Shown: positions 22,063 to 59,511 of the stretch, piece by piece
How positions within the stretch are numbered: the stretch's first letter is position 1
How the letters are laid out: each line of letters opens with the position of its first letter
DNA from: Candidatus Latescibacterota bacterium
GTDB taxonomy: Bacteria; Latescibacterota; UBA2968
DNA length: 64,000 nt
Assembly (NCBI GenBank): GCA_965222605.1
Contig: OZ244960.1
Location: 5,952,001-6,016,000, forward strand
Reading direction: 5' to 3'
Translations under genes and position numbers: made by a program
The notes under the pieces: model-generated
The model's database searches: none
What the model was told of the DNA's origin: nothing
Seen by the model: only the letters and a program-made list of their open reading frames with translations

Positions 22063-22136
22063 GGTGTCGTGCTACGATTTTGCGGAGGTCAAGGTGGAAG
22101 GGGATACCGTGGAACCGAACAATAGGGAGGTGCATT

Positions 22137-23462
22137 ATGCTGCCCGAAGAGATTGTCAATATACCCCCGGCGCTGACGGAAGAGACGTTTGACGAGTTGT
22201 TCGAGGCCTGCCGGCCGCGTGCAAGCGAGGAGCGGTGGACTGAGGTGCCCTGGATCGGAGAGTTATGGGATGGGCGGCAGAAGGCCGCACGGGAGGAGAA
22301 GCCGCTGTTCATCTGGGCGATGAACGGGCATCCTCTGGGATGCGTTTGAAACAATGGGGTAACGGGCCGTGCGCTCGTCTTCAGCGATCCGAGAGCAATT
22401 CAACTACTGAATGATCATTTCGTCACGGTCGCGGTGGATAATACGCGACTCCAGCGGCAGGATGACGATGAGGGACGGTTTTTGCGATTGATTGCATGGC
22501 AGGGCCGGTACGGGTACTCATTCGATGAGGCGCTGGCGAAGGTGAATGATATAGACCACGGGATGAATCACCAGGGACTTTATGTAACGACGACCGAAGG
22601 AGAAGTCCTGGGCACGCGGAACAGGTGCGGTCCACATGGCATATTGCAAGCCAGCGGCAGCATGAGCACCAACCCGGACTTGCTGGTAGAGATGCTGGGC
22701 AAAGCACTGAAAAACTGGGAGGTCCGAAAGACTCAGAGAGAAGCTTATAAAATCGGCGGGTTGGATAGGGAGGAAGCATTCATATGGGAGTATCCGGAGG
22801 ACGGCCTGGTGCTGCATCTGGGGTGCCGGGATCTGCCCCGGCGGGTGGATTTGCGGCCTGAGAACTGGAGACGTGAGGCGCACAATCAGGACTATGTCTG
22901 GTTCCGGCGAGAGGAGATGCTGTCGATCGTGCCGCCCGGCGTGTCGGCAGGCGATACGTTTTCGATGCCGGAGGGTTTGACCCGGCGGCTGGTCCGGTAC
23001 CACCTGGTGGATTCTGTTGGAGGGCAGCCCTCTCACTGGTCGCCCGAGGCACTTCGGGATGTGGAGATGAGGCTGGAAGTGACGGGTGTGACGCCGAAGC
23101 GGGTGGATTTGACGGTTTCCGGGCAGGCACGTTTGTATGAAGAGGGGGATTGGTGCGCGCATCCGCCGTCTTCTTCGGCCTACCGTATGGGAGAGATGTG
23201 TTGCTTGATCCGCGAGCGTGGATTTGATGCCTCCTTGCTGGGATACCTCTGCTTCGACCGTCGGACGGAGCGGTTTTCCCGGTTCGATCTGGTTGGGGTG
23301 GGTACCCGATGGGGGGGTACGAATGTGAGTGGGCGCCGGGAAGACATTGAGCCTTCGCCAATGGGGATCGCGATGACGCCTGCGGATATGGAGTCGCGGG
23401 ACCAGACGCCGCCGCATGCGAGCCAGAGGCGGGGCAACCTGGAGCGCTATTTTGACGCGTAA
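22137..23462 (+). CDS. Putative selenoprotein with thioredoxin-like N-terminal domain and CxU motif (TGA 22347-22349 read as Sec), about 441 aa
   Basis: GGAGG RBS before ATG 22137. The ORFs ending at 22349 and starting at 22434 share a frame with a stop-free linker. It reads GHPLGCV-U-NNGVTGRALVFSDP...LN.HFV.VAVD. The TGA is conserved in the paralog. Confidence 0.85.
22362..22378 (+). promoter_or_regulatory. Candidate bacterial SECIS hairpin
   Basis: ACGGGC-cgtgc-GCTCGT starts after a 12-nt spacer from the TGA, has a G-containing loop, and is identical in the paralog. Confidence 0.7.
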
Positions 23463-23475
23463 AGGAGCGGAGACG

Positions 23476-23631
23476 ATGCAGTATGAACAGCGACCGAGAA
23501 TCGGCATTCCCTGCGCCCATGTGGAACCGGAGCAGGGAAAGTTTCTGCCCATCTTCTCCGCGTGCCGGGGAGTACAGGTGCTCAACGTGGCGGCGGCGCA
23601 GTCCCGGTTGTTTTCTGGGAAAAGAGCGTGA
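23476..23631 (+). pseudogene. 51-aa ORF, possible N-terminal remnant of a peptidase C26/PuuD-like gene
   Basis: Strong AAGGAG RBS, MQYEQRPRIGIPC start, and a stop overlapping the next ATG (TGATG). Confidence 0.4.
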
Positions 23632-25631
23632 TGTCGGATGCGAAGCCTGCACTGGGTGAGCAGCAGCCGGTACAGGATAAGACAGCTATGGTTTTGGAAC
23701 CGGAGACCAGGCCTGGGTTGACGGTGCGGTCTGTGGTTCTCGGTCTGCTATTTACGTGTCTGATGGACGTGTGGATCATCTACTCGGACTACTACGTCCA
23801 CTCCTCCAGGTTCAACCTCACGCACTTTCCAATCGCGCTGCTGTCCGTGTTCCTGTTTTTGACCTTTGTGGTCAATCCCATCCTCAAGACGATCGCCCCG
23901 GGGCAATTGTTCTCGTCCCGGGAGATCCTGGTGATGTTGGCGATGGGATACACGGGGGCGGCGGTGCCGGCGTCAGGGCTGACGGGGATTCTGCTGGGGG
24001 TGATCGCCCCGCCCTATTACTATGCCACGCCCGAAAACCAGTGGGCGGAGTATCTGCACGAGCATATTCCCGGATGGATTGCGCCCACCGACGCAAAAGC
24101 GATGGGGTGGTTCTGGGAAGGGATGCCGGAAGGTGCGAGTATCCCCTGGGATGTCTGGTTTGTGTCCCTGTTCTGGTGGTCGTTGTTCGTGGGCGCCGTG
24201 TTTTTTGTTTCGGCCTGTCTGGTCGTGATCATGCGGAAGCAGTGGGTGGAGCACGAGCGTCTGTTCTTTCCACTGGCTGCTGTGCCGATTGAGATGGTGC
24301 AGCAGGAAGCCGGACAACGGTTGCCGCTGATTACAAAAGAGTCCCGATTCTGGCAGGGGTTCGGGTTTGCCCTGTTTATTCCGCTGTGGAATTTCTGGGG
24401 ATACTTCTGGCCGCTTTTTCCCCAGATTCCGTTCCAGGCGAACCTGGTCAACCGCCACTGGCGTCCCTTCGGACGCCTGTTCCCGAGGATCAATCCGGAG
24501 GTGGATTTTTACGTGATCGGGTTTGCGTATTTCGCAAACCTGGATGTGCTGTTCAGTGTGTGGCTTTTTGGGCTGCTGGGCTTTGCACAGACAGGAATCT
24601 TGAACCGGATCGGTTACCCGATCGCCAGGGAGGGATACGACGCCACTGACTGGGAGTGTCTGGGAGCGCTCTTCGTGGTGGTGCTCTGGGGGCTGTGGGT
24701 AAGCAGAGCGCATCTCAGGCAGGTGGCCCGGGCGGCGTTCCAGCGGGGGGAGAAATCCGGAGACAGGGGAGGTGAGATCCTGTCCTACCGGACGGCCGCG
24801 ATCGGGTTCCTGCTGGGATCGGCCTTTATCCTCTGCTGGCTCTACCAGGCGGGAATAGAGCCCTGGGTGCTACTGGTATTTTTCCCGGCGTTGATGCTGG
24901 TCTATCTGGGCATGACGCGATTTGTGGCAGAGACCGGCTTTGTATTTGCCAACGCACCTGTCAGCGAAGACGCGTTTATCCTCAAGGTGCTGGGGTCCAG
25001 GGTTCTGGCCCCCTCGACCATTACCGCCCTGGCTTTTGAACGGGCGCTTTACTCCTACGGCAAAGCCCTTTTTACGCCTGCGTTGGCCCATGCCGCAAAG
25101 CTGGGAGAGGTGATCGGGGGGGACCGGCGCAAGCTGTTCGGGGCCATCGGGCTGACGCTGGTTGTGGGGCTCGTTGTATCTGTCGGGTTGACCCTCTACT
25201 TGGGATATACCACCGGCGCGAGCAATTTTAACGATACGCCAATGTTACGGGGGCTGGATGGGTTCTACCGTGCGGTATCCCTGATCAAAAGTCCTGAAGA
25301 ACCGGCGTGGCCTCAGATTGGATTCTTCGGCGCAGGTACAGCGTTGGCGGTTTTTCTGTTCTTTTTGCGGTCGCGCTTTCCCTGGTGGCCGGTGCATCCG
25401 ATCGGTCTGATCGTCGGCGGCAGTTACTGGGCCCACTTCTACCTGACGTCGATCTTCCTGACGTGGTTCTGCAAGCTGGTGATCCTGAAGACTGGGGGAG
25501 CCGTGCTCTTCAGGAAGTTCCGGCCGTTTTTCTTAGGGCTGCTGGTGGGATATACGCTGGGGATTTTTATTATGTTTCTCATGGATATAATCTGGTTCTC
25601 CGGTTCGGGGCACCGGGTGCATACGTGGTGA
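23631..25631 (+). CDS. DUF6785/DUF6784-like polytopic membrane protein (putative transporter)
   Basis: Many TM segments. Motifs PYYYATPENQW, RKQWVEHERL.FPL, DVLFSVW, WWPVHPIG, PFFLGLLVG. Confidence 0.75.
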   Translation: MSDAKPALGEQQPVQDKTAMVLEPETRPGLTVRSVVLGLLFTCLMDVWIIYSDYYVHSSRFNLTHFPIALLSVFLFLTFVVNPILKTIAPGQLFSSREILVMLAMGYTGAAVPASGLTGILLGVIAPPYYYATPENQWAEYLHEHIPGWIAPTDAKAMGWFWEGMPEGASIPWDVWFVSLFWWSLFVGAVFFVSACLVVIMRKQWVEHERLFFPLAAVPIEMVQQEAGQRLPLITKESRFWQGFGFALFIPLWNFWGYFWPLFPQIPFQANLVNRHWRPFGRLFPRINPEVDFYVIGFAYFANLDVLFSVWLFGLLGFAQTGILNRIGYPIAREGYDATDWECLGALFVVVLWGLWVSRAHLRQVARAAFQRGEKSGDRGGEILSYRTAAIGFLLGSAFILCWLYQAGIEPWVLLVFFPALMLVYLGMTRFVAETGFVFANAPVSEDAFILKVLGSRVLAPSTITALAFERALYSYGKALFTPALAHAAKLGEVIGGDRRKLFGAIGLTLVVGLVVSVGLTLYLGYTTGASNFNDTPMLRGLDGFYRAVSLIKSPEEPAWPQIGFFGAGTALAVFLFFLRSRFPWWPVHPIGLIVGGSYWAHFYLTSIFLTWFCKLVILKTGGAVLFRKFRPFFLGLLVGYTLGIFIMFLMDIIWFSGSGHRVHTW

Positions 25632-40971: not shown

Positions 40972-42984
40972 ATGGCCATTCAGCTACGAGAGGACTGCCA
41001 AGAGAGAACCAGATCCATGACGCGCTCCGTGCTTCTCGGCCTCGGCCTGGTCGTCGGGATTGATGTGCTGGCTATCTATGTGAAATACCTGCTTCCCCGA
41101 GGCCCGATGATGGCCTACAGCCATGTGCCTATGGTCGTGCTAATCGGCTTTGTCCTGATGCTCCTGGCCGGAGCAGTTGTTGCGCGTGGAACGAGGCGGG
41201 CACTGTCGCCCTCGGAATGGCATACCATTCTGGCGATGGGAATGGTCGGGGCAGCGGTCCTGTTCTACGGGTATTCCGGCTACCTTATTTCCTACATGGG
41301 CGCGCCGCACTACTTCGCCACGGGTGAAAACGAATGGGCCAATTATCTGCACCCCTATATTGCAGAGTGGCTGTTTCCCGAAAACGAAGAGAAAGCGGTG
41401 ACCTGGTTCTGGGAGGGACTACCCAGGGGCGCGCAATTGCCGTGGGGGAAGTGGATCTTACCCCTGTTCTGGTGGGGCGGATTGACCGTTGCCGCTTTTG
41501 TCCTCTATGCCTGCGTCACCACCATCTTCCGCAAACAGTGGATACACTATGAAAAAGTGGCCTTTCCGGCTATGGCTCCGCTGGTCGAAATGGCCTCCAA
41601 TCCGGGAGATGGAAAGGGATTTCTCCCGGCGTTCACGCGGAATGCGCTCTTCTGGCTCGGCTTCTGGCTCGTCTTCGGGATGATCGCCTGGAACTGTGTC
41701 AACTACTTCATCCCCACCTTTCCCCAATTCCCCATCTACGCGCAAGGCAGTGCGGCACACCAGGGAGGGCGATGGATCTGGATCGATCGAAATTTTCCGC
41801 CTATCTACGGCATCCTCGATATTTTTACTATCTGCTTTTCCTATTTCGCAACTGTGGAAGTTCTGTTCAGCATCTGGTTTTTCGATCTGCTCTTTATCCT
41901 CGAAGGGGGCCTGCTCAACCGGATCGGATTTGTGGCTACTTCGCCCTATTACTACTCGGGGGTCTGCTTCTGGCAGACGAAGGGAGCCTTCTTCTTTCTG
42001 GTGCTTTCTACCATCTGGGCGGCGCGTTCGCAGATCCGGGATGTGTTTTGGAAGGCACTTGACTCCCAGGCCCCGGTTGACGATAGGGACGAACCGCTCT
42101 CCTACCGCACGGCTGTTGCAGGGTTGGCTATCAGCCTGATCTACATCTGGGTCTGGTTGATCCGGATCGGATTTGATCCTTTTCAGGCGGTACTTCTGAT
42201 CTTCGGGGCGATCTTCACCTATTTGGGATTGGCGAGAATCCTGTCCGATACAGGGTTGCCTTATGTCAACGCCCCCGTTTGGGGAGGATGGGGCCTGGTA
42301 AGCCCCTTTCTGGATGGAGGATCCATCCACGCGAACACCCGGGTAGCTGCACGGACCTCGGGCGTCCTGTTATCCAATTTCAAGGGATCCTTTTTACCCG
42401 CTCTCAGCCAGGCCGGACGGGTGGCTGAGGGCGTGCAGGTGGAAAGCCGGCGACAGCTCACAGGCGCGGTTTTTCTGGCTTTTGTGACGAGTGTGGTCAC
42501 ATGCGTGGTGGTGACACTTTATCTGGGTTATCGACACGGAGCACTGAACTTTACAGGTTGGGTGGCGATCGGATCCGGCAATGCGCACTACGATCGCACC
42601 GCGAAATCCGTCAGATCCTTTCTGATGCAGGATACCGATGCACCGATCTTCATAGAACATCCTGACCAGTTCGCCTTTTTTGTGCTCGGCGCGCTGGCTA
42701 CCGCGGCGCTCTTTCTTCTCAGGCGTCGGTTCCCGTGGTGGCCGCTTCATCCGGCGGGCCTCGCCATTTCAGGCTCTTTTCTGGCTCGACGGACGAGTTT
42801 GACGGTTCTTGTAGCCTGGCTGATCAAGTGGATTACCGTAAAGGTAGGGGGAGCATCCTCCTACCAGAAATCCCGGCCCCTGTTTCTGGGCCTGCTCGTC
42901 GGCTATGTCATGGGTGTCGTGTTATCGCTCTTCATTGACCTGATCTGGTTTCCCGAGCAGGGCCACATGGTCCATCGACTTTAG
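40972..42984 (+). CDS. DUF6785/DUF6784-like polytopic membrane protein, paralog of 23631-25631
   Basis: PHYFATGENEW, RKQWIHYEKV.FP, EVLFSIW, WWPLHP.G, PLFLGLLVG. Confidence 0.75.
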   Translation: MAIQLREDCQERTRSMTRSVLLGLGLVVGIDVLAIYVKYLLPRGPMMAYSHVPMVVLIGFVLMLLAGAVVARGTRRALSPSEWHTILAMGMVGAAVLFYGYSGYLISYMGAPHYFATGENEWANYLHPYIAEWLFPENEEKAVTWFWEGLPRGAQLPWGKWILPLFWWGGLTVAAFVLYACVTTIFRKQWIHYEKVAFPAMAPLVEMASNPGDGKGFLPAFTRNALFWLGFWLVFGMIAWNCVNYFIPTFPQFPIYAQGSAAHQGGRWIWIDRNFPPIYGILDIFTICFSYFATVEVLFSIWFFDLLFILEGGLLNRIGFVATSPYYYSGVCFWQTKGAFFFLVLSTIWAARSQIRDVFWKALDSQAPVDDRDEPLSYRTAVAGLAISLIYIWVWLIRIGFDPFQAVLLIFGAIFTYLGLARILSDTGLPYVNAPVWGGWGLVSPFLDGGSIHANTRVAARTSGVLLSNFKGSFLPALSQAGRVAEGVQVESRRQLTGAVFLAFVTSVVTCVVVTLYLGYRHGALNFTGWVAIGSGNAHYDRTAKSVRSFLMQDTDAPIFIEHPDQFAFFVLGALATAALFLLRRRFPWWPLHPAGLAISGSFLARRTSLTVLVAWLIKWITVKVGGASSYQKSRPLFLGLLVGYVMGVVLSLFIDLIWFPEQGHMVHRL

Positions 42985-44739: not shown

Positions 44740-45124
44740 GTGGCGAGGTTGGTCAAGTATCGCTATTTCAACATGACCTGGGGATCGCTCTCATACGCAG
44801 AATCTATTTGAACCAGACGCTCTAAAGTCAGAGCGAATAATGCAAAATCTTAACTACAAATAATTATTGCAAATCAGGCGGTTCATTATCGGCATTATTA
44901 ATTTCTTTTATCCCGGAAGCGCTGAGAAACTTTTCTGCCAGCGGTCCAAAATGATCTTCTCTTGATTTTGTGTGTCATGTTTGCGAATTTATGGATAGGA
45001 AATCCCTTTGTCAATCCCTGTTTCCATTCCGCCCAGGCGCCTCGGGTTAGAGGGATTGAACGATTGTTGACTTATTCTTTTGAACCGCGGTCACTTTTCA
45101 CCTGAAGAAACATGGAGGTGTATT

Positions 45125-46405
45125 ATGATGCTCAAAGAGATAACAAATTTTGCTCCGGCATTGACGGACGAGACATTTGCAGAGTTGTTCGAAGCCTGTC
45201 GGCCCCAAAGAGAACGCTGGACAGATATCCCCTGGATCGGGGAACTCTGGGAGGGACGACAGAAGGCGGCGCGCGAGGAGAAGCCATTGTTCATCTGGGC
45301 GATGAACGGCCACCCTCTGGGTTGTACGTGAAATAATGGGGTTACGGGCCGTGCGCTCGTTTTTTCAGATCCGCGCGTGATCGCGCTTGTGAACGAACGG
45401 TTTATCCCGGTGGCTGTGAACAATTCCCGGTTGCAGCGACAAGCCGATGAAGAGGGCCGATTTTTGCGCTTGATCGCCTGGCAGGGGCGGTACGGGTATT
45501 CTTTTGAGGAAGCTCAGGCCCGGTTGGAGGCTATCGATCACGGGCTGAATCATCAAGGTCTATATGTAACAACGACAGAGGGAGAGGTGTTGGGCAGCCG
45601 CAACAGACTGTTTCCGGGTGGCAAGGTCCATGTTCAGAGTGTGGGTAGCGATCCAGACCGGTTTTTGTGGATGTTGAGACGGGCGCTGGTAAACTGGGAG
45701 AACCGCAAGACTCAGCGCGAGGCATTGGAAGTCGAAGATCTGGCGTATCGGGATCCCACATTTAGCTGGACGGCGTATCCGGAAGATGGGCTGGTTTTGC
45801 ATCTGGGTGTTAGGGACCTGCCCCGGCTGGTAGATACGCGGCCTCCGGGAATGAAGCGAGAGGCGCACAATCAGGATTACGTCTGGTTCCGACGGGAAGA
45901 GATGCTGTCTATGGTTCCACCGGATACGGCTGTGGGCGATGTTATTCCCATGCCCGAGGGGTTGGTCAGGCGGCTGGTGCGTTATCATCTGGCGGATTAT
46001 GTTCGGGGGGAAACGTCTTCGTGGTCGTCCGAGGCGATTCGGGATGCGTCTATGACGTTGACAGTGACTGATAAGACGCCAGAATGGGTGGATTTAAGGC
46101 TTTCCGGATCCGCGCGGTTGTTCGCGGAGGGGAGTTGGTACGAGGGTGCGTGTCAAAATCGGGGGCTGGATGCATCGCTTCTGGGATATTTGCGTTTTGA
46201 TCGGTCTGAGGAACGGTTCGTGCGATTCGATGTGGTGGCGGTGGGATCGCGGTGGGGCGGCACGGATTACAATGTACGGCAGGACGATTTGGAGCCTGCG
46301 CCGATCGGGATTGCGATGACGATTGCCGGGTCTGAGGCGAAGGATCGCACAGCGCCGCATGCGTGCCAGAGTCGAGGTGGTCTGAAATGGTATTTTAATG
46401 CGTGA
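45125..46405 (+). CDS. Putative selenoprotein paralog with CxU motif (TGA 45329-45331 read as Sec), about 426 aa
   Basis: GGAGG RBS before ATG 45125. The split ORFs are in frame and read GHPLGCT-U-NNGVTGRALVFSDPRVIALVNERFIPVAVN. Confidence 0.85.
45344..45360 (+). promoter_or_regulatory. Candidate bacterial SECIS hairpin
   Basis: ACGGGC-cgtgc-GCTCGT with the same 12-nt spacing from the TGA as in the paralog. Confidence 0.7.
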
Positions 46406-46444
46406 TTTGATAGCCGGGATGTGTTTTGTCGCATTTTGGGAGGG

Positions 46445-47374
46445 ATGATGATACGGTGCGAACGCAGAGCAGAACTCGAGATCGAAACACCGCACCTTTG
46501 CGCGACGGTGCGGACAGAGGGGTACGTGAGCGGGATCAAAAGCAGATCGTTTGTAGATAAACGGACGGGCGCGACCGATCTGGGTTCGGGCCTGCACATT
46601 ATGGACTTTCTGCTCGTGCCGGGGTGGGGAGATGCAGAACAAAATCGGATCTACGACGGGAATCTGCCCAAGCGCGTGGTGGAAGGTCCCCAGATCTGTA
46701 CGCGGGCACGGCGGCTGGACTATGAGGTTATCCGGGGCGAAGCGTTTCTGGCCGTGCGGCAGTGGTTTACGTTCACGAGCGTGGTTGAAGGTTTCCAGGC
46801 CGGGTCGCGGTGGGAGCAGACGTTGCTATTTCTGCCAGATACGCGGTACGTGCTTTCGTGCGAACGGATCACCTGCGTCAATAGTGCGGACTGTCTGTTT
46901 TACCGGATCGACATGCCCGGCCACCTGCACCACAAGGGTGGAGACACTTTTACGCGGATTTACCTGAGCTACCACGGGTACATCGAGTCTTCAGAATTCC
47001 TGACGGATTTCCCCCCGGACGAAGGGTTCCTCTATCAGCGCAAAGATCACGATATTCCCGATCGGATTATCCGGGCGTATGAACAACGGAAAGAGGGCGG
47101 CACGGCCGTGTGGCTGGCGGGGATGACGCTGGACCCAGCGGCGGTGTACGAGGCGTGGTGCCACCAGCGGGGTTACGTCTGTTTCATCCAGGAACTGCAC
47201 GGTCGGAAGGTGACGGCAGGGGACGCGATCGGGGCCGCCTATGTGGTGGGATATTTCGATTCGGTGGCTGAGATGAATGCGGTCTATGACCAGTATCGAG
47301 GGGTGCGCTCGATTGCGGTAGATGAAAAGGGATACACCCTGCTGAATGAGGTAGAGAAAGCCGATGGGATTTAG
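46445..47374 (+). CDS. Hypothetical protein (beta-rich)
   Basis: GGGAGGG RBS before ATG 46445. Long ORF just downstream of selenoprotein 2 with no motif I recognise. Confidence 0.7.
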   Translation: MMIRCERRAELEIETPHLCATVRTEGYVSGIKSRSFVDKRTGATDLGSGLHIMDFLLVPGWGDAEQNRIYDGNLPKRVVEGPQICTRARRLDYEVIRGEAFLAVRQWFTFTSVVEGFQAGSRWEQTLLFLPDTRYVLSCERITCVNSADCLFYRIDMPGHLHHKGGDTFTRIYLSYHGYIESSEFLTDFPPDEGFLYQRKDHDIPDRIIRAYEQRKEGGTAVWLAGMTLDPAAVYEAWCHQRGYVCFIQELHGRKVTAGDAIGAAYVVGYFDSVAEMNAVYDQYRGVRSIAVDEKGYTLLNEVEKADGI

Positions 47375-51989: not shown

Positions 51990-53555
51990 TTGATGAAAAT
52001 TCTTCTTACTTTTACGGGCTTTCATGACCCATATTCATTGGGTTTGGTTGGCGAAGAAGAGCAGCCTGGGCCCATTTTGTCTCTTATAGGGGCTGTGCCG
52101 TTTGACAAGGTCGTTCTCTTGTCAACACCTGCAACAGAGAGCCATACTGCTGGGACACGGGAGGCGCTTGAACGGACACATTCAGAGATATCTGTAGAAA
52201 TACTGGATTTTCCGCTTGCTGACCCTACGGATTACCATGCCATCATTCAGGAACTTCGAGAGAAGATTCCTCCGGTTCTGGGGAAATTCCCAGATGCGAA
52301 ATTCTCTATCTCAGTCGCCTCAGGGACACCGCAAATGCACGCGAGCTGGGTGCTCTTAACCGCTAGTGGAGAGATTCCTGCTCAGATCCTTCATGTTCGC
52401 CCGCCCAGGTTTGTTACGAAAGACCGACCTCTCGTATCAGAGGTCAAGCTGGCTCCGACCTATACGCAGCCTTTAAAGGAAGGGTTTAATCTCAAACTTG
52501 CTGAATTTCGACAAGAGTCAACAGCCCTCTTTTCACCAAGCGATGCGAAAGTGTCGGAAGTACCGGAACCCTACTTTACGCCAGATTTGGATGAAATCGT
52601 CGCGCAAATGGGGATTGTTGGAGAGCATCAGAGCGTTCGAAAGGCCATTGAAATTACGGATCAGCTTGCGGGATCAGACTTTCCGCTTCTTATTTTGGGA
52701 GAAACGGGCACGGGAAAGGAGTTATTTGCCAAACTTGCGCATCGGCTCAGTAGAAGGCCTCCAGACAAGTTTGTTACTTTGAGCAGTCCCAATATACCCC
52801 ATGAACTGGTTGAAAGTATGTTGTTTGGCCACAAAAAAGGCGCGTTTACCGGGGCTGTTCGTAATCAGACAGGTAAGTTTGAGCAAGCGGATGGAGGTAC
52901 GCTTTTTTTGGATGAAATCGGGGAACTCCCGCTGCCTACGCAGGCAAAATTGCTGCGTGTGTTGCAGGATGGTATTATTGAACCGCTCGGTAGCACAAAG
53001 AGCAAGCAGGTCAATGTGAGGATTGTTGCGGCGACAAATCGCGATCTGTTGGAAGAAATTAAAGCAGGAAATTTTCGGGAGGATCTGTATTACAGACTGC
53101 GAGGAGGAGAGATACGACTTCCTTCTTTACGGGAACGTAGAAGTGATGTTGGTAAGTTGGCACTGAATATCCTGGATCGCGTGAATGCCAGTTTGCGATA
53201 TCCAAAGCGGTTTACCCGGGAAGCCTTGAATCGTCTGGAGAGTTTTAGTTGGCCGGGGAATGTTCGTGAACTGGAATTTGTGATTGAGCGTTCAGCGCGG
53301 CTCGCTCGAAAGGAGTTGCTGGATGCAGATGACATCGTATTCGATGCGCCAGCTTCTGGAACAGACCCCTTTGCATCACTTCCGGAACCACATGATGGAT
53401 TCTATATGAACGATTATCTTAAGAGCGTGCGCAAGCAATTGATGCTTCGCGCCCTGGAAATTGCCAATGGGAATCAGAGCCAGGCGGCAAAGCTGTTGGG
53501 GGTTACGGCACAGGCCGTGCATAACTTCATCAAGGACGAAGATGGAAAGTCGTGA
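51990..53555 (+). CDS. Sigma54-dependent activator with RtcR/CARF-like N-terminal sensor
   Basis: GETGTGKE, GAFTGA, LFLDEIGE, FREDLYYRL, WPGNVREL and Fis HTH. N-terminus has TG.HDP...DPTDY...SGTPQM and no receiver domain. Confidence 0.88.
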   Translation: MMKILLTFTGFHDPYSLGLVGEEEQPGPILSLIGAVPFDKVVLLSTPATESHTAGTREALERTHSEISVEILDFPLADPTDYHAIIQELREKIPPVLGKFPDAKFSISVASGTPQMHASWVLLTASGEIPAQILHVRPPRFVTKDRPLVSEVKLAPTYTQPLKEGFNLKLAEFRQESTALFSPSDAKVSEVPEPYFTPDLDEIVAQMGIVGEHQSVRKAIEITDQLAGSDFPLLILGETGTGKELFAKLAHRLSRRPPDKFVTLSSPNIPHELVESMLFGHKKGAFTGAVRNQTGKFEQADGGTLFLDEIGELPLPTQAKLLRVLQDGIIEPLGSTKSKQVNVRIVAATNRDLLEEIKAGNFREDLYYRLRGGEIRLPSLRERRSDVGKLALNILDRVNASLRYPKRFTREALNRLESFSWPGNVRELEFVIERSARLARKELLDADDIVFDAPASGTDPFASLPEPHDGFYMNDYLKSVRKQLMLRALEIANGNQSQAAKLLGVTAQAVHNFIKDEDGKS

Positions 53556-54028: not shown

Positions 54029-54874
54029 GTGAAGCGGAAATTTCAGGTCTGCAATGGCTATTATCTTGAATTTGAGCAACTTGCCAGAGTATTGAATTTT
54101 CTAAAAGCCAATCTTGATGCTAAAAAGATTAGTCGGGCTGATCTGATGGATGGGACAGGGCTCTCAGAGCGGCAGATCGAAAGTCTGGTAAGTGTTGGAG
54201 CTGCGATGGATTTGATTCAGCGTGGCAAGCAGATCCTTAGCGAGTCCGGTAGATTGATTGCCGAGAATGATATTTTTATTGAGGCAAAGGGATCTCTGGA
54301 ATGGTGTCATTACAAAGGTGCTGGTAATTATCGAAACCTAATCTGGTACGATATTTTTAATGTCATTCTTCCCTATGAATCGCCTATGACGTCTGAAGGG
54401 TGGATGGCCCATCTAAGGGAGATTTTGGCTGGGCAGTACACGGACAGGACGATTGGCAAGCATCTTCAAGAGGAAGTTCGTTTTGTTGAGAACGCATACC
54501 TTGAACGGAATTTTGGACGTCTTGAACTGCTGTATCAGAGTTCAGAGAATTTCATAAGCCGTCGCCGTCATTCTAATCCCGATCCCAAGGTTTTTGCCGC
54601 CATTCTCTACGCCTATGCTGAGGTTCATAATGCGAATTTGCATCAGGTAAAAGATCTTGTGGAAACGGTGGGTGCTCCAGGTTTTTTGTTTGCTCTCGAC
54701 GAGGGTACACTCAGATTGATTTTAGAGGAACTGCATAAGCGCGGTTGGATTCGCTTTGAGGGTACTCATAATCTGGATCAGGTTCGGCTGAAAAGCGAAT
54801 TCTCGTACCTTGATTTTCTCGCAGCCTATTATGAAGATCGCGAACCCGAGGCAAAATCAGTCTCAAAAGGATAG
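54029..54874 (+). CDS. DUF4007 family protein (SspB/BrxP-N-like)
   Basis: Winged-HTH pattern with LS..G.LI...D.F.E...LEW.HY...W...FN. Confidence 0.65.
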   Translation: MKRKFQVCNGYYLEFEQLARVLNFLKANLDAKKISRADLMDGTGLSERQIESLVSVGAAMDLIQRGKQILSESGRLIAENDIFIEAKGSLEWCHYKGAGNYRNLIWYDIFNVILPYESPMTSEGWMAHLREILAGQYTDRTIGKHLQEEVRFVENAYLERNFGRLELLYQSSENFISRRRHSNPDPKVFAAILYAYAEVHNANLHQVKDLVETVGAPGFLFALDEGTLRLILEELHKRGWIRFEGTHNLDQVRLKSEFSYLDFLAAYYEDREPEAKSVSKG

Positions 54875-54884
54875 GGACGCATTC

Positions 54885-55352
54885 GTGAATGATGGCATCG
54901 ATATTATCAAGCAGGCAAAGGGATTGCCCCAAAGACCAAGGGGTAGAGCGTGTATTGTTTTGACGCACAAACATGAGGAGCAAAGGGCCTGGGCTAAGGA
55001 ACTGGCCGTGCAAATGGGTGCACATCATCTCGATCTGTTGGATCATTTTGCATCTCATCCAGATTTGACAGAGAATATTGGGCAATTTACAATTCAGAAC
55101 CTGTTCGATTTGCTGTCCTCAATGAGGAATCAGAAGGTTTTGATTGTGACCGGTTTGGAGTTTTTGTTGGCAACATGGACGGGCAGTCCTAGTGCGATGG
55201 AGCAATTTGCGCATCAGATTGAATCCTGGGATAAATCGCCAGCCTTGCTGATTGTCATGCAATACGATGGTGCGCTGGCTACCAGAAGGTTCACACGATA
55301 CCCTCAGTATAAATTCGTTGTAGATCAAAAGGAGACGTTTGCACTGTTATGA
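54885..55352 (+). CDS. Small degenerate P-loop protein, BrxF-like
   Basis: 155 aa from GTG 54885, alpha/beta pattern with VLIVTGLEFL and no Walker A. Its stop overlaps the MTase start (ATGA). Confidence 0.45.
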   Translation: MNDGIDIIKQAKGLPQRPRGRACIVLTHKHEEQRAWAKELAVQMGAHHLDLLDHFASHPDLTENIGQFTIQNLFDLLSSMRNQKVLIVTGLEFLLATWTGSPSAMEQFAHQIESWDKSPALLIVMQYDGALATRRFTRYPQYKFVVDQKETFALL

Positions 55353-58300
55353 AAAATCAAGGTCTTTTTAGCACATTATTCATTGAAGACATTCAGAAAG
55401 AAACAGAACTGGACGATATGGGCGGGGGTCGTATGACCGCCCTGGCTCAAGCCTGGCAAGCGTGCAATCGAGGCTCTGCTGATGATCTATGGGAAAGTTT
55501 TGTCAAGCAGGCGGTTAGTTACCTGGAGTTCGCGCCGCGCGCTGCACCGGCTGTTCCTGGAATTTATCTCCTGTATGAAGATTGGGGATTTAGGAACTGC
55601 CTTTCAGTGCTTTGTCTTGTTGATCCAAAAGGAGATATGGATGATACGCGTGTGGGGCACTTCTGGGTTGGCAAGCTTATTGCCGAACTGAAGGCCTGCA
55701 GTCTCAATTGGGGCATTTTGACGGATGGGAGTTGCTGGCGACTTTATTCCTTAAAGACAGCAAAGCCCTATGAAGAGTACGTTGAATTGCCTCTATCGAA
55801 TGCCCTTGAAAACAATGACGAAGCCGAATATGCTTTGTTTGAGCATTTTTTTCATCGTGATGTTTTTGTGCCAGAGCGACCTGATGAAGATGAGGATGAT
55901 GCAGAAGATGAGAAGGCTACTGTCAAGGAGCTTTACAAGTGCCGTCTGGATAGAGATGGAGAGCAATCTGAAGAGATTCTGGAGGAATATGTAAAATCTC
56001 CACTGCTGAATCAGGTTGATGAAGTCCTCCAATATATCTGCAACGGATTCATTGCGGATACGTCCCGCAAAGGGGGAGAGTACACGGAAGATGAGCGCCG
56101 CGAGATCTTTGAAAGTGCCGTCAAACTCCTCTACCGGTGTTTGTTCCTTTTTTATGCTGAATCACGTCATCTGTTGCCCTCAGATACAGAAAAAACCGAA
56201 GTCTATGAAGAGGGGCTTTCGATTTATGCGTTGTGCCGGGAGGCACATGGTTTTCGTTGGGGGAAGCGTAGTGACCACGGAGAGTATGATCTCTGGCAGC
56301 ACTTGAAAGGGCTGATCAGCGCGGTGAACGATGGCGACTCAGAATACGGGATTATGGGATACGATGGTGGCCTTTTCGACGATGAAGAGGAACTCTTTCT
56401 TGGGCAGCATCGACTGCGGAATGATTTCCTTGCTCGTGCCCTTTATCTGTTGGCTTTCGTTGAGCCTTATAATTCTGATCCAGAAGAAGAATATGAGATT
56501 CCCTATGAGGATCTGGAAGTTCGGCATCTGGGAGAACTGTATGAGAACATCCTGGAATTCAACGTTATGTTGGCCGAAGTAGATATGGTTCGGGTGCAGT
56601 CCAAGAAAGGCACTCAGATCCTTCCAAACACCGAAGTAAAGCAAAGGGCGTCGTCGCGCCTAATAAAAAAAGGGGATGTCTATTTTGGCGAGACTGCACT
56701 TGAGCGGAAGCAGACGGGATCGTATTACACACCGGAGTCATTGGTTCATTTCCTCAACCAGAAGGCTATTATACAGCCCTTAAAGGAGCGCTTTGAAAGT
56801 GATTTCAGGGAGCGGTTTGATCAATTTCTGGAGCAAGCTACTGAAGGATTTGATTCGTCAACGCGGAGCGGGGCCGTTCAATCTGCAGTCGCACTGATAG
56901 AGCGATTCGTGAACGAGGTTGTTCTGGATTTTAAAGTTTGCGATCCGGCAATGGGCAGTGGGCATTTCCTGGTTAATGCGTCAAACCAAATGACGGTTCT
57001 GGTGGTCGATCTGTTTACAGAAATCCCGGTAGCTGAGGGATTCAACTCTGACTTGAATTGTGAGATCAACTATTGGAGAAGGCTGATCACTCGACATTGT
57101 CTCTATGGAGTGGACCTGAATCCTTTGGCAGTTCATCTGGCCAGACTTTCTCTCTGGCTGAACAGCTTTGCGAGGGATCATAAATTGACATTTTTGGATC
57201 ACCATTTGCGGTGTGGGAATAGTCTGATTGGAATCCGATCCCTTAGCCAGCTTCGAAAAATACCTAAAAGGAAAAAGGATCGTCGCAGAAAAACAGATCA
57301 GGAAGAGCTTTTTGATTTGACCCAGTTGTCAAGTATCCTTGATGTTGCTGCTAATACGACACTGAAGATTACCGAAGTTGATGAGGACGATACAGATAGG
57401 CAGAAAGGCATGTTCAGTCAGGCTCAAGATGCTACTGCCGATTTTCATCCATTGGCAGATCTGTTTACAGCCTATTTAATGGATTTAGACATTCAGATAG
57501 TTGATTATAGGGATCTCTTCGAATGTTTGGCAACCGGAAAGTCTGTTTCTAAGACTTTAAATCCTTACTTACCGGAACTTTTGGAATCTATCGGTGCTTA
57601 TCGTGAGAAGCACCAATTCTACCATTGGCCGTTAGAATTCCCTGATGTTTTCGCTCCTGGAGCTATGGGAGGGTTCTCTGCAACAGTTGGAAATCCTCCG
57701 TGGGATATTTTGAAACCTAATTCGCAAGAATTTTTCTATGCGTATGATTCAAAGTTCCGCTCCTATAATAAAAAGGAAGCTAATAGTGTATGCGAGAAAA
57801 TACTCAACCAGAATCTAAGTATACAAGCAAAATGGGAAGATTACTGCGCACGTTTTAGCCAACAGAGTTCATATACAAGGGAACCCTTGACATATCAATT
57901 TCAGGGCAGAGGAGACATAAATACGTACAAGCTTTTCCTTGAGCTGTTCTTTATTCTACTAAATGATAGTGGGTATATTGGCATTCTTGTGCCTAGTGGA
58001 TTATATACAGACCAAGGATGCGCACTGCTGCGAAGATTGTTCTTTGAAAATACGCATGTGGATAGTTTGTTCTGTTTTGAGAATAAAGGTATTTTCAATA
58101 TTCACAGAAGTTATAAGTTTGTCACCTTCTGTACAAGGAAGGGTGAATCTTCTGGTAGGCTCAAATGTGCATTTATGGAACACGATCCAGATAGCTTACC
58201 TCGATTAGAGAAGAATTCGCTCGAAATAAATGTAAACCAAATAAAGAAACTTGCCCCAGAGAACCTAAATATTTTTGAGTTCCAAAATCAACAAGAAATA

Positions 58301-58610
58301 GACATTATCGAGAAGATATATTCCGATCATCCTCCATTAGGGCAGAAATCCAACTCCCCCTGGTCTGTGCTGTTCACTAGAGAGATAGACAATATGGGTG
58401 ACATGGAGATGCTAAATCAAGATGGTTTCGGGGTCCCTCTGTATGAAGGAAAGATGATTCACCAATACAATCCAAACTTCGCCAAAAATAACTATTGGAT
58501 TGACCCGGATAGAGCACGAACAAAACTCAAAAAGTTTCCGGAACAAAAACTGATAAATGCGGATCATTATCGTCTTGTAAATCGCCGCCAAGCACGGACA
58601 ACCGATACTA

Positions 58611-59511
58611 ACCTTTGGTGCTAGTAGATAAGAAGTTGTAAGTCGCCAGAAGTTTACCTATGCTGAATGAGTTAGCACCTCATTCATTCACAGCAGGGAG
58701 GTAAACTTCATGACGACTGAAATGCTGATCATTGACCTGTTCTGTCGGGTAGATGATCAAACGCAAGACCTTGAGAAACATCCTCAAGCCAAGCTCTATC
58801 CCAGCGAAGTCATCACGTTGGCCTTGCTTTTTGCGATTAAAGGGGTGGGCAATCGCGCCTATTATGATTGGCTGATAAACGATTGGCAGCACCTGTTTCC
58901 TAACTTACCTCATCGCACGCGCTTGTTTCGCCTCTTTTTAAGGCATCAACACGCCACAAGCCGATTTTTAGCCGAAAAGAGCGTGTTGGGCATCATTGAT
59001 AGCTATGGCATTGAGTTGATTCATCCGATCCGAGAAGGCAGAAGTCCTGCTCAGATCGGGAAGAAAGGCAAATCGAATTATCGCTGGATTGTCGGTGGCA
59101 AGCTCTGTCTGTTGATCAATCAATGGGGTCTCATCGTGGATTGGGACTGTCAGACAGCTAATGTTCACGATACCACCTTCCACCATCTCATCAAGCAGGT
59201 GCAATCAGACATGGTCGTCTTTGCCGATGTCGGCTTTCAAAAAGCGCAAGACAACCCAGAAAACTTAAAAATCTGTCCGCGTGGCACTTGGAATGAGCGC
59301 ATGGTGGTTGAAACCATCTTATCTATGATGACGCTCGTGTGGCATTTTAAGAAAGTCATGCATCGGGTCTGGAGCTATTTTGCAATGCGATTGGCTTTTA
59401 CCATGGCCGCCTTCAATATCTTGGTACAATGGCAGGGCTTTAAACCCGATGAAGATGGGTTCATTAACCTTGCCATCGCACACTTCAGAATATAACACTA
59501 GCACCAAAGGT
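58611..59511 (+). mobile_element. IS982-like insertion sequence, 901 bp
   Basis: Perfect 15-bp IRs ACCTTTGGTGCTAGT (58611-58625, 59497-59511) with 5'-AC ends. 5-bp target duplication TACTA at 58606-58610 and 59512-59516. Confidence 0.9.
58710..59495 (+). CDS. DDE transposase (IS982-like)
   Basis: IDS, ANVHD, AD.GF, R..VET motifs, and it lies between the IRs. Confidence 0.88.
   Translation: MTTEMLIIDLFCRVDDQTQDLEKHPQAKLYPSEVITLALLFAIKGVGNRAYYDWLINDWQHLFPNLPHRTRLFRLFLRHQHATSRFLAEKSVLGIIDSYGIELIHPIREGRSPAQIGKKGKSNYRWIVGGKLCLLINQWGLIVDWDCQTANVHDTTFHHLIKQVQSDMVVFADVGFQKAQDNPENLKICPRGTWNERMVVETILSMMTLVWHFKKVMHRVWSYFAMRLAFTMAAFNILVQWQGFKPDEDGFINLAIAHFRI

Follow-up and report, generated by a model that had tools for sequence, protein, structure and literature searches.

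The window analysed here, a stretch of 64,000 nucleotides, is part of a single 6.34-Mb contig whose closest relatives are Latescibacterota MAGs. It harbors two related genes, both encoded, with all their features given below, on the forward (+) strand. Copy A (45125..46405) begins with an ATG at 45125 that is preceded by a Shine-Dalgarno (SD)-like GGAGGT (45114..45119), ends with a TGA at 46403-46405, and, read as one gene, encodes 426 aa with Sec69. Its internal TGA (45329-45331) lies in frame with the ATG in the context GHPLGCT*NNG, is the last codon of a Cys67-Thr-Sec69 motif (TGT ACG TGA, 45323..45331), and is followed by 357 open codons up to the terminal stop. The paralog, copy B (22137..23462), harbors an SD GGAGGT (22126-22131) ahead of the first ATG at 22137, an internal TGA (C-V-U, 22347..22349) within GHPLGCV*NNG, and 370 further open codons to a TAA, yielding 441 aa with Sec71. 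The TGA thus occupies the matching column of both copies (GCT*NNG / GCV*NNG), as the earlier note had stated, and forms part of a C-x-U motif in each; the described distance of about 23 kb corresponds to 22,988 nt between the starts. Read through, the copies share 287 of 443 positions (65%), with 19 gap columns, in agreement with the reported divergence and indels. In public protein sets, copy A is stored as pieces of 68 and 342 aa and copy B as pieces of 70 and 342 aa, denoted hypothetical where named. Gene callers start the second piece at an internal GTG (45377 in copy A), before which no SD-like sequence was found in either copy. A single contig from one DNA run, which may be the source of the genome, spans all of copy A with zero letter differences. 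A genome search returned no further family copies besides A and B, and the same two-copy arrangement is present on one other chromosome (loci L005 and L017).

The codon comparison of A and B yields a pS of 0.48-0.74, i.e. near saturation, and a pN of 0.09-0.24. The earlier note had proposed a dN/dS comparison up- and downstream of the TGA, with neutrality in the linker behind it as the outcome speaking against recoding. The ratio is 0.05 upstream of the TGA (53 codons), 0.14 between the TGA and the next possible start, GTG (only 15 codons), 0.07 over the remaining part of the thioredoxin domain, and 0.28 for the C-terminal domain. These figures are rough since dS is near saturation, but all of them, including that of the linker, are well below 1, as expected under recoding. 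In comparison with 11 orthologs, codons 70-84 have a mean pS of 0.10, as opposed to 0.25-0.35 outside codons 70-110, and this low synonymous change indicates an additional constraint at the RNA level. In a tree of 54 rows, A and B form sister clades (support 0.998) inside a Latescibacterota group. Judged by this phylogeny, they arose through an old duplication within Latescibacterota; the shared UGA was therefore inherited and predates the duplication, so that the two copies are not independent evidence. Copy B is the rarer one: 14 of 20 other genomes of the same genus carry the gene, one of them with two matches. One same-genus ortholog (L018:4896-5684) shows an in-frame deletion of the entire thioredoxin/Sec domain, with about 16 N-terminal residues fused to an intact C-terminal domain.

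Behind the internal UGA, both copies encode a bacterial SECIS hairpin (45344..45360 in copy A, 22362..22378 in copy B), consisting in each case of a 6-bp stem and the loop CGUGC, 18 nt past the UGA. The hairpins of A and B are identical despite saturated synonymous sites in their flanks. A published SECIS model describes a loop of 3-9 nt, a stem of 4-16 bp, a G in the first two loop positions, a position 16-37 nt after the UGA, and an energy of -7.5 kcal/mol or lower (PMC13188914). With a loop of 5 nt, a stem of 6 bp, a G in second place, and a spacing of 18 nt, the hairpin conforms to the structural rules. As to energy, the 29-nt piece of copy A narrowly misses the threshold with -7.3 kcal/mol and that of copy B reaches -9.5 kcal/mol; 50-nt pieces yield -11.8 and -10.2 kcal/mol, respectively, with the piece from copy A preferring another register. 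Single-sequence stability of the two hairpins is not above that of shuffles (z +0.7, +1.2, -0.7, -1.05). Evidence for the helix comes from covariation: in an alignment of 19 sequences spanning several phyla, all 114 cells are paired and five of the six pairs show two-sided changes, many of which also alter amino acids while the pairing is kept. None of 500 shuffles reaches the observed level, slid registers are 30-54% paired, and RNAalifold predicts the same helix unprompted. Of 174 distinct sequences downstream of the UGA, 150 have a stem of 5 bp or more and a G in the loop, compared with means of 62-70 and a maximum of 92 after synonymous recoding; about 120 of the underlying loci were chosen by a TGA-containing pattern that does not cover the hairpin. 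In a second sequence group, the loop lies about 5 nt farther downstream. The G and U at +23/+24 presumably match those of E. coli fdhF. Together with the six T that come after it, the hairpin of copy A (45344-45366) also scores as an intrinsic terminator, a feature absent in copy B and variable in orthologs.

The genome carries a tRNA-Sec(TCA) as well as selA, selB, and selD with scores above the cut-offs, and thus the complete set selA, selB, selC, and selD expected of a bacterium producing selenoproteins. selD contains a TGA of its own and adjoins tRNA-Sec; FdhA-like and peroxiredoxin-like UGA genes with similar hairpins are found elsewhere in the genome. The peroxiredoxin-like gene is clustered with selD and tRNA-Sec (G000:C1:3612397-3614146), and more UGA candidates lie on the reverse strand at C1:1830825 (FdhA-like) and C1:113400.

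The codon at the Sec column was compared in 87 aligned loci from a protein search, a sample in which some genomes were fetched twice and 12 loci were picked as atypical-looking. The 88 hits comprise 79 TGA, two TGT, five other sense codons (one of these a one-column shift beside a TGA), and two gaps, with no TAA or TAG; the terminal stops of the same genes are 45 TGA, 21 TAG, and 12 TAA. At 28-90% identity, this TGA recurs in Latescibacterota, Planctomycetota, Verrucomicrobiales, and Kiritimatiellia. Nine proteins with GHPLGC(T/V)CNNG, plus P0138, are Cys orthologs in which the otherwise identical motif carries Cys at this column. Within its own phylum, the gene is present in 42 of 140 genomes, and the other 41 carriers all possess selA (41/41), a gene that is common there regardless (117/140). 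A sample of 401 genomes from Planctomycetota, the phylum of an Isosphaeraceae MAG, contains the gene in 108 (27%) and selA in 267; selA accompanies it in 107 of 108 gene-bearing genomes versus 160 of 293 gene-less ones, kin among them not being independent. The lone carrier lacking selA matches only from profile position 103, with the Sec region not in frame. Carriers from Verrucomicrobiales and Kiritimatiellia possess selA, too. In total, 1811 clusters at 50% identity match the family at E 0.001, and it is often multi-copy in Planctomycetota genomes.

With high confidence, A and B are each one continuous gene in which the UGA specifies selenocysteine, a reading based on the machinery, the SECIS covariation, the Cys orthologs, and the co-occurrence with selA. 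Programmed UGA recoding, as claimed by the earlier note, is thereby supported and can be named as selenocysteine insertion. The argument the note gave for it, conserved flanks around a shared UGA, is insufficient, because conserved flanks alone do not exclude two separately translated genes and the shared UGA is inherited. Such a pair of genes would produce a 68-aa peptide terminated at the UGA and, by re-initiation, a 342-aa protein, the two assembling into one fold, in keeping with the separately stored database pieces and the in-frame GTG at 45377. We consider it extremely unlikely: the stop is never TAA or TAG at the Sec column, the linker is under protein-level selection, the GTG lacks an SD, the split would take away the active-site helix, uninterrupted Cys orthologs exist, and the gene co-occurs with selA.

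Reading of the UGA as Trp, Gly, or Cys via a changed code or leaky read-through is very unlikely as well. Two database proteins (P0259 and P0199) show a W at the Sec column, which may be real or a gene caller's code-4 reading. TGA is, however, the stop that most often closes long open frames of this genome (824/2015) and terminates copy A itself; tRNA-Sec is the only tRNA with a UCA anticodon that was found, orthologs align a Cys at this column, and the hairpin agrees with the SECIS model. A pseudogenising nonsense mutation common to both copies, or else an assembly error, for which nothing speaks besides the stop itself, has a negligible probability in view of the same TGA in four lineages down to 28% identity, the low dN/dS on both sides of it, and the agreement of read contigs.

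Selenocysteine insertion at this UGA would follow the established bacterial pathway, in which SelB carrying Sec-tRNA would bind the hairpin loop 18 nt downstream and insert Sec; without selenium, translation would end after 68-70 residues. The predicted model of the full-length protein (pLDDT 92.4, pTM 0.91) displays a fold that is continuous across the UGA. Residues ~29-198 of copy A (45209..45718) form a thioredoxin-fold domain of the DsbD-gamma / DUF255 / AGR type, and residues 219-426 (45779..46402) form a C-terminal domain with a long antiparallel beta-sheet, for which no Pfam or NCBIfam family and no clear solved-structure match were found. Sec69 is placed just before helix 70-79 and aligns without gaps to the first CxxC cysteine of DUF255-type proteins; in the predicted model, the domain hence shows both features that characterize a thioredoxin fold, the structural match and a redox residue where the active-site helix begins. 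The enzyme is quite likely a thiol/selenol oxidoreductase. Sec would replace the attacking (nucleophilic) Cys of the thioredoxin CxxC, and the usual resolving Cys would be substituted by Gly (U-N-N-G); the Cys two residues upstream most likely resolves Sec by forming a Cys-Sec selenenylsulfide. Binding of the substrate or partner is the probable role of the C-terminal beta-sheet domain, and the enzyme would therefore act on specific protein thiols or disulfides. Copies A and B show no hydrophobic N-terminal stretch and are probably cytoplasmic, unlike most family members, which look exported.

Many full-length homologs lack Sec or both redox residues, and catalysis is therefore not universal in the family. 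In some UGA copies, the upstream Cys is missing or moved (L071, L072, L205, and L206). L205 (G400:C560) and L206 (G314:C37) represent a tandem arrangement in which a C-x-x-x-U UGA copy precedes a paralog that has Ser in the Sec column and lacks the Cys, and L212 (G226:C42) a tandem pair of two UGA copies; such paralog pairs possibly form active/inactive heterodimers. In six proteins (P0006, P0024, P0037, P0054, P0115, and P0140), a non-Sec two-domain unit is located, as assigned by eye, at the C-terminus of Ser/Thr kinase-like or ECF sigma factor-like proteins, an arrangement suggesting that the unit was recruited there as a sensor domain.

Neither copy A nor copy B scores above the cut-off of any NCBIfam (June 2026) or Pfam model. 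The nearest model, NF041383 (VPGUxxT family thioredoxin-like (seleno)protein, type 2), likewise describes a thioredoxin-like bacterial selenoprotein and matches weakly over its first 70 profile positions (17.7-20 bits; 20 of 77 members at E <=0.05). Membership was rejected, as the cut-off is 275 bits and the motif differs (C-x-U-N-N-G, not VPGUxxT); the remaining profile positions and the C-terminal domain are unmatched. The closest known folds are thioredoxin folds of the Thioredoxin_7 / DUF255 (DsbH) / DsbD-gamma / AGR2-3 groups (3f9u, 2lst, 3ph9, 3ira, and 2ju5), from which the present proteins differ by a C-x-U-N-N-G on a longer loop instead of CxxC, an extra N-terminal helix, and the beta-sheet domain of ~210 aa. 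The CxU spacing resembles that of the listed CxU selenoproteins Brachyspira Sec.1, rhodanese form 3, UshA-like, and ferredoxin-thioredoxin reductase, and the Trx7-type fold that of Trx7/PDZ (NF041199) (Table 1, PMC13188914). Brachyspira Sec.1, a small protein of the PF13192 type, carries its Sec in an extension at the N-terminus (PMC5330540). The NCBIfam models among these CxU proteins and NF041199 match none of the 77 members at E 0.05. The family was not recognised among the 119 selenoprotein families in Table 1 of a 2026 review (PMC13188914), nor found in passages on deep-Sep, BSepDB, SelCysML, and Secmarker, in passages of a SELENON review, or in those of a Planctomycetes genome paper with its Table S9. 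The selenoprotein family is apparently uncatalogued.

The window represents a glycan-catabolic region with lyases, sulfatases, amidohydrolases, and a GFO oxidoreductase, and the earlier note had suggested a redox role tied to glycan and amino-sugar metabolism. That the Sec enzyme serves this surrounding pathway, e.g. together with a DegT-family aminotransferase, is unlikely. In 6 of the 26 loci surveyed, a DegT-family gene directly adjoins the selenoprotein gene (three upstream, three downstream, the latter a 38-39% paralog), and it lies within ~6.5 kb in 9 of 14 same-genus carriers. The other five carriers, however, have no DegT match at E 1e-150, distant loci of the survey share no common neighbours and differ between lineages, such genes are abundant throughout these genomes, and most family members look exported. 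The neighbourhood survey therefore lends the proposed role no family-wide support, and the catabolic island around A and B is not obligately linked to them. A 317-aa ORF without Pfam/NCBIfam match (46421-47374) begins 15 nt after copy A; in 5 of the 11 close orthologous loci, it is likewise kept next to the gene. Two DUF6785/DUF6784 membrane proteins of ~35% identity are encoded just after copy B (23562-25631) and ~2 kb before copy A (40972-42984). The segment 51990-60250 resembles a defence or mobile island: it encodes a CARF/RtcR-like sigma-54 activator (51990-53555), a DUF4007 protein (54029-54874), a methyltransferase of the Eco57I type (55349-58624), and part of a DDE transposase (58710-59495).

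Kinship with animal selenoprotein N (SELENON/SEPN1) is unproven and is suggested by a single language-model hit. In the ESM Atlas, the top match of the Cys homolog P0138 is a 'Selenoprotein N' cluster (0.91, 196/256 features), although shuffled proteins attain this score in 4-10 of 100 cases. The C-terminal domain alone yielded only bacterial hypothetical clusters, and protein searches returned no SELENON sequence. SELENON presumably has a domain order different from that of this bacterial family. It is an ER membrane protein with an EF-hand and a SCUG motif (PMC8584023). The divergent full-length members L208 and L209 harbor an adjacent Cys-UGA dyad in place of C-x-U that resembles SCUG (PMC8584023), and they are possible bridges to SELENON. 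This dyad is confined to L208 and L209; copies A and B, in contrast, contain C-T-U-N and C-V-U-N, lack a membrane anchor, and show no EF-hand or other Pfam match at E 0.01. A tentative and rather doubtful proposal is that the family ranks with the most widespread of the overlooked selenoprotein families in bacteria and is, at the same time, the bacterial sister group of SELENON; the two would have the thioredoxin domain with its Sec in common and possibly, in another order, the beta-sheet domain as well.

The mechanism as such holds nothing new, both Sec recoding and selenoproteins with a thioredoxin fold being well known. The finding concerns a large and very widespread bacterial family that is stored in databases as truncated hypothetical proteins without their active site, pairs an unusual C-x-U-N-N-G site with a domain without a clear solved match, and retains SECIS pairing through amino-acid-changing substitutions. 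The family may help to explain the retention of selA in two thirds of the sampled Planctomycetota genomes (267/401). If the SELENON link were true, the soluble, anchor-free copies of Latescibacterota would provide a tractable system in which to study the chemistry of this human myopathy protein.
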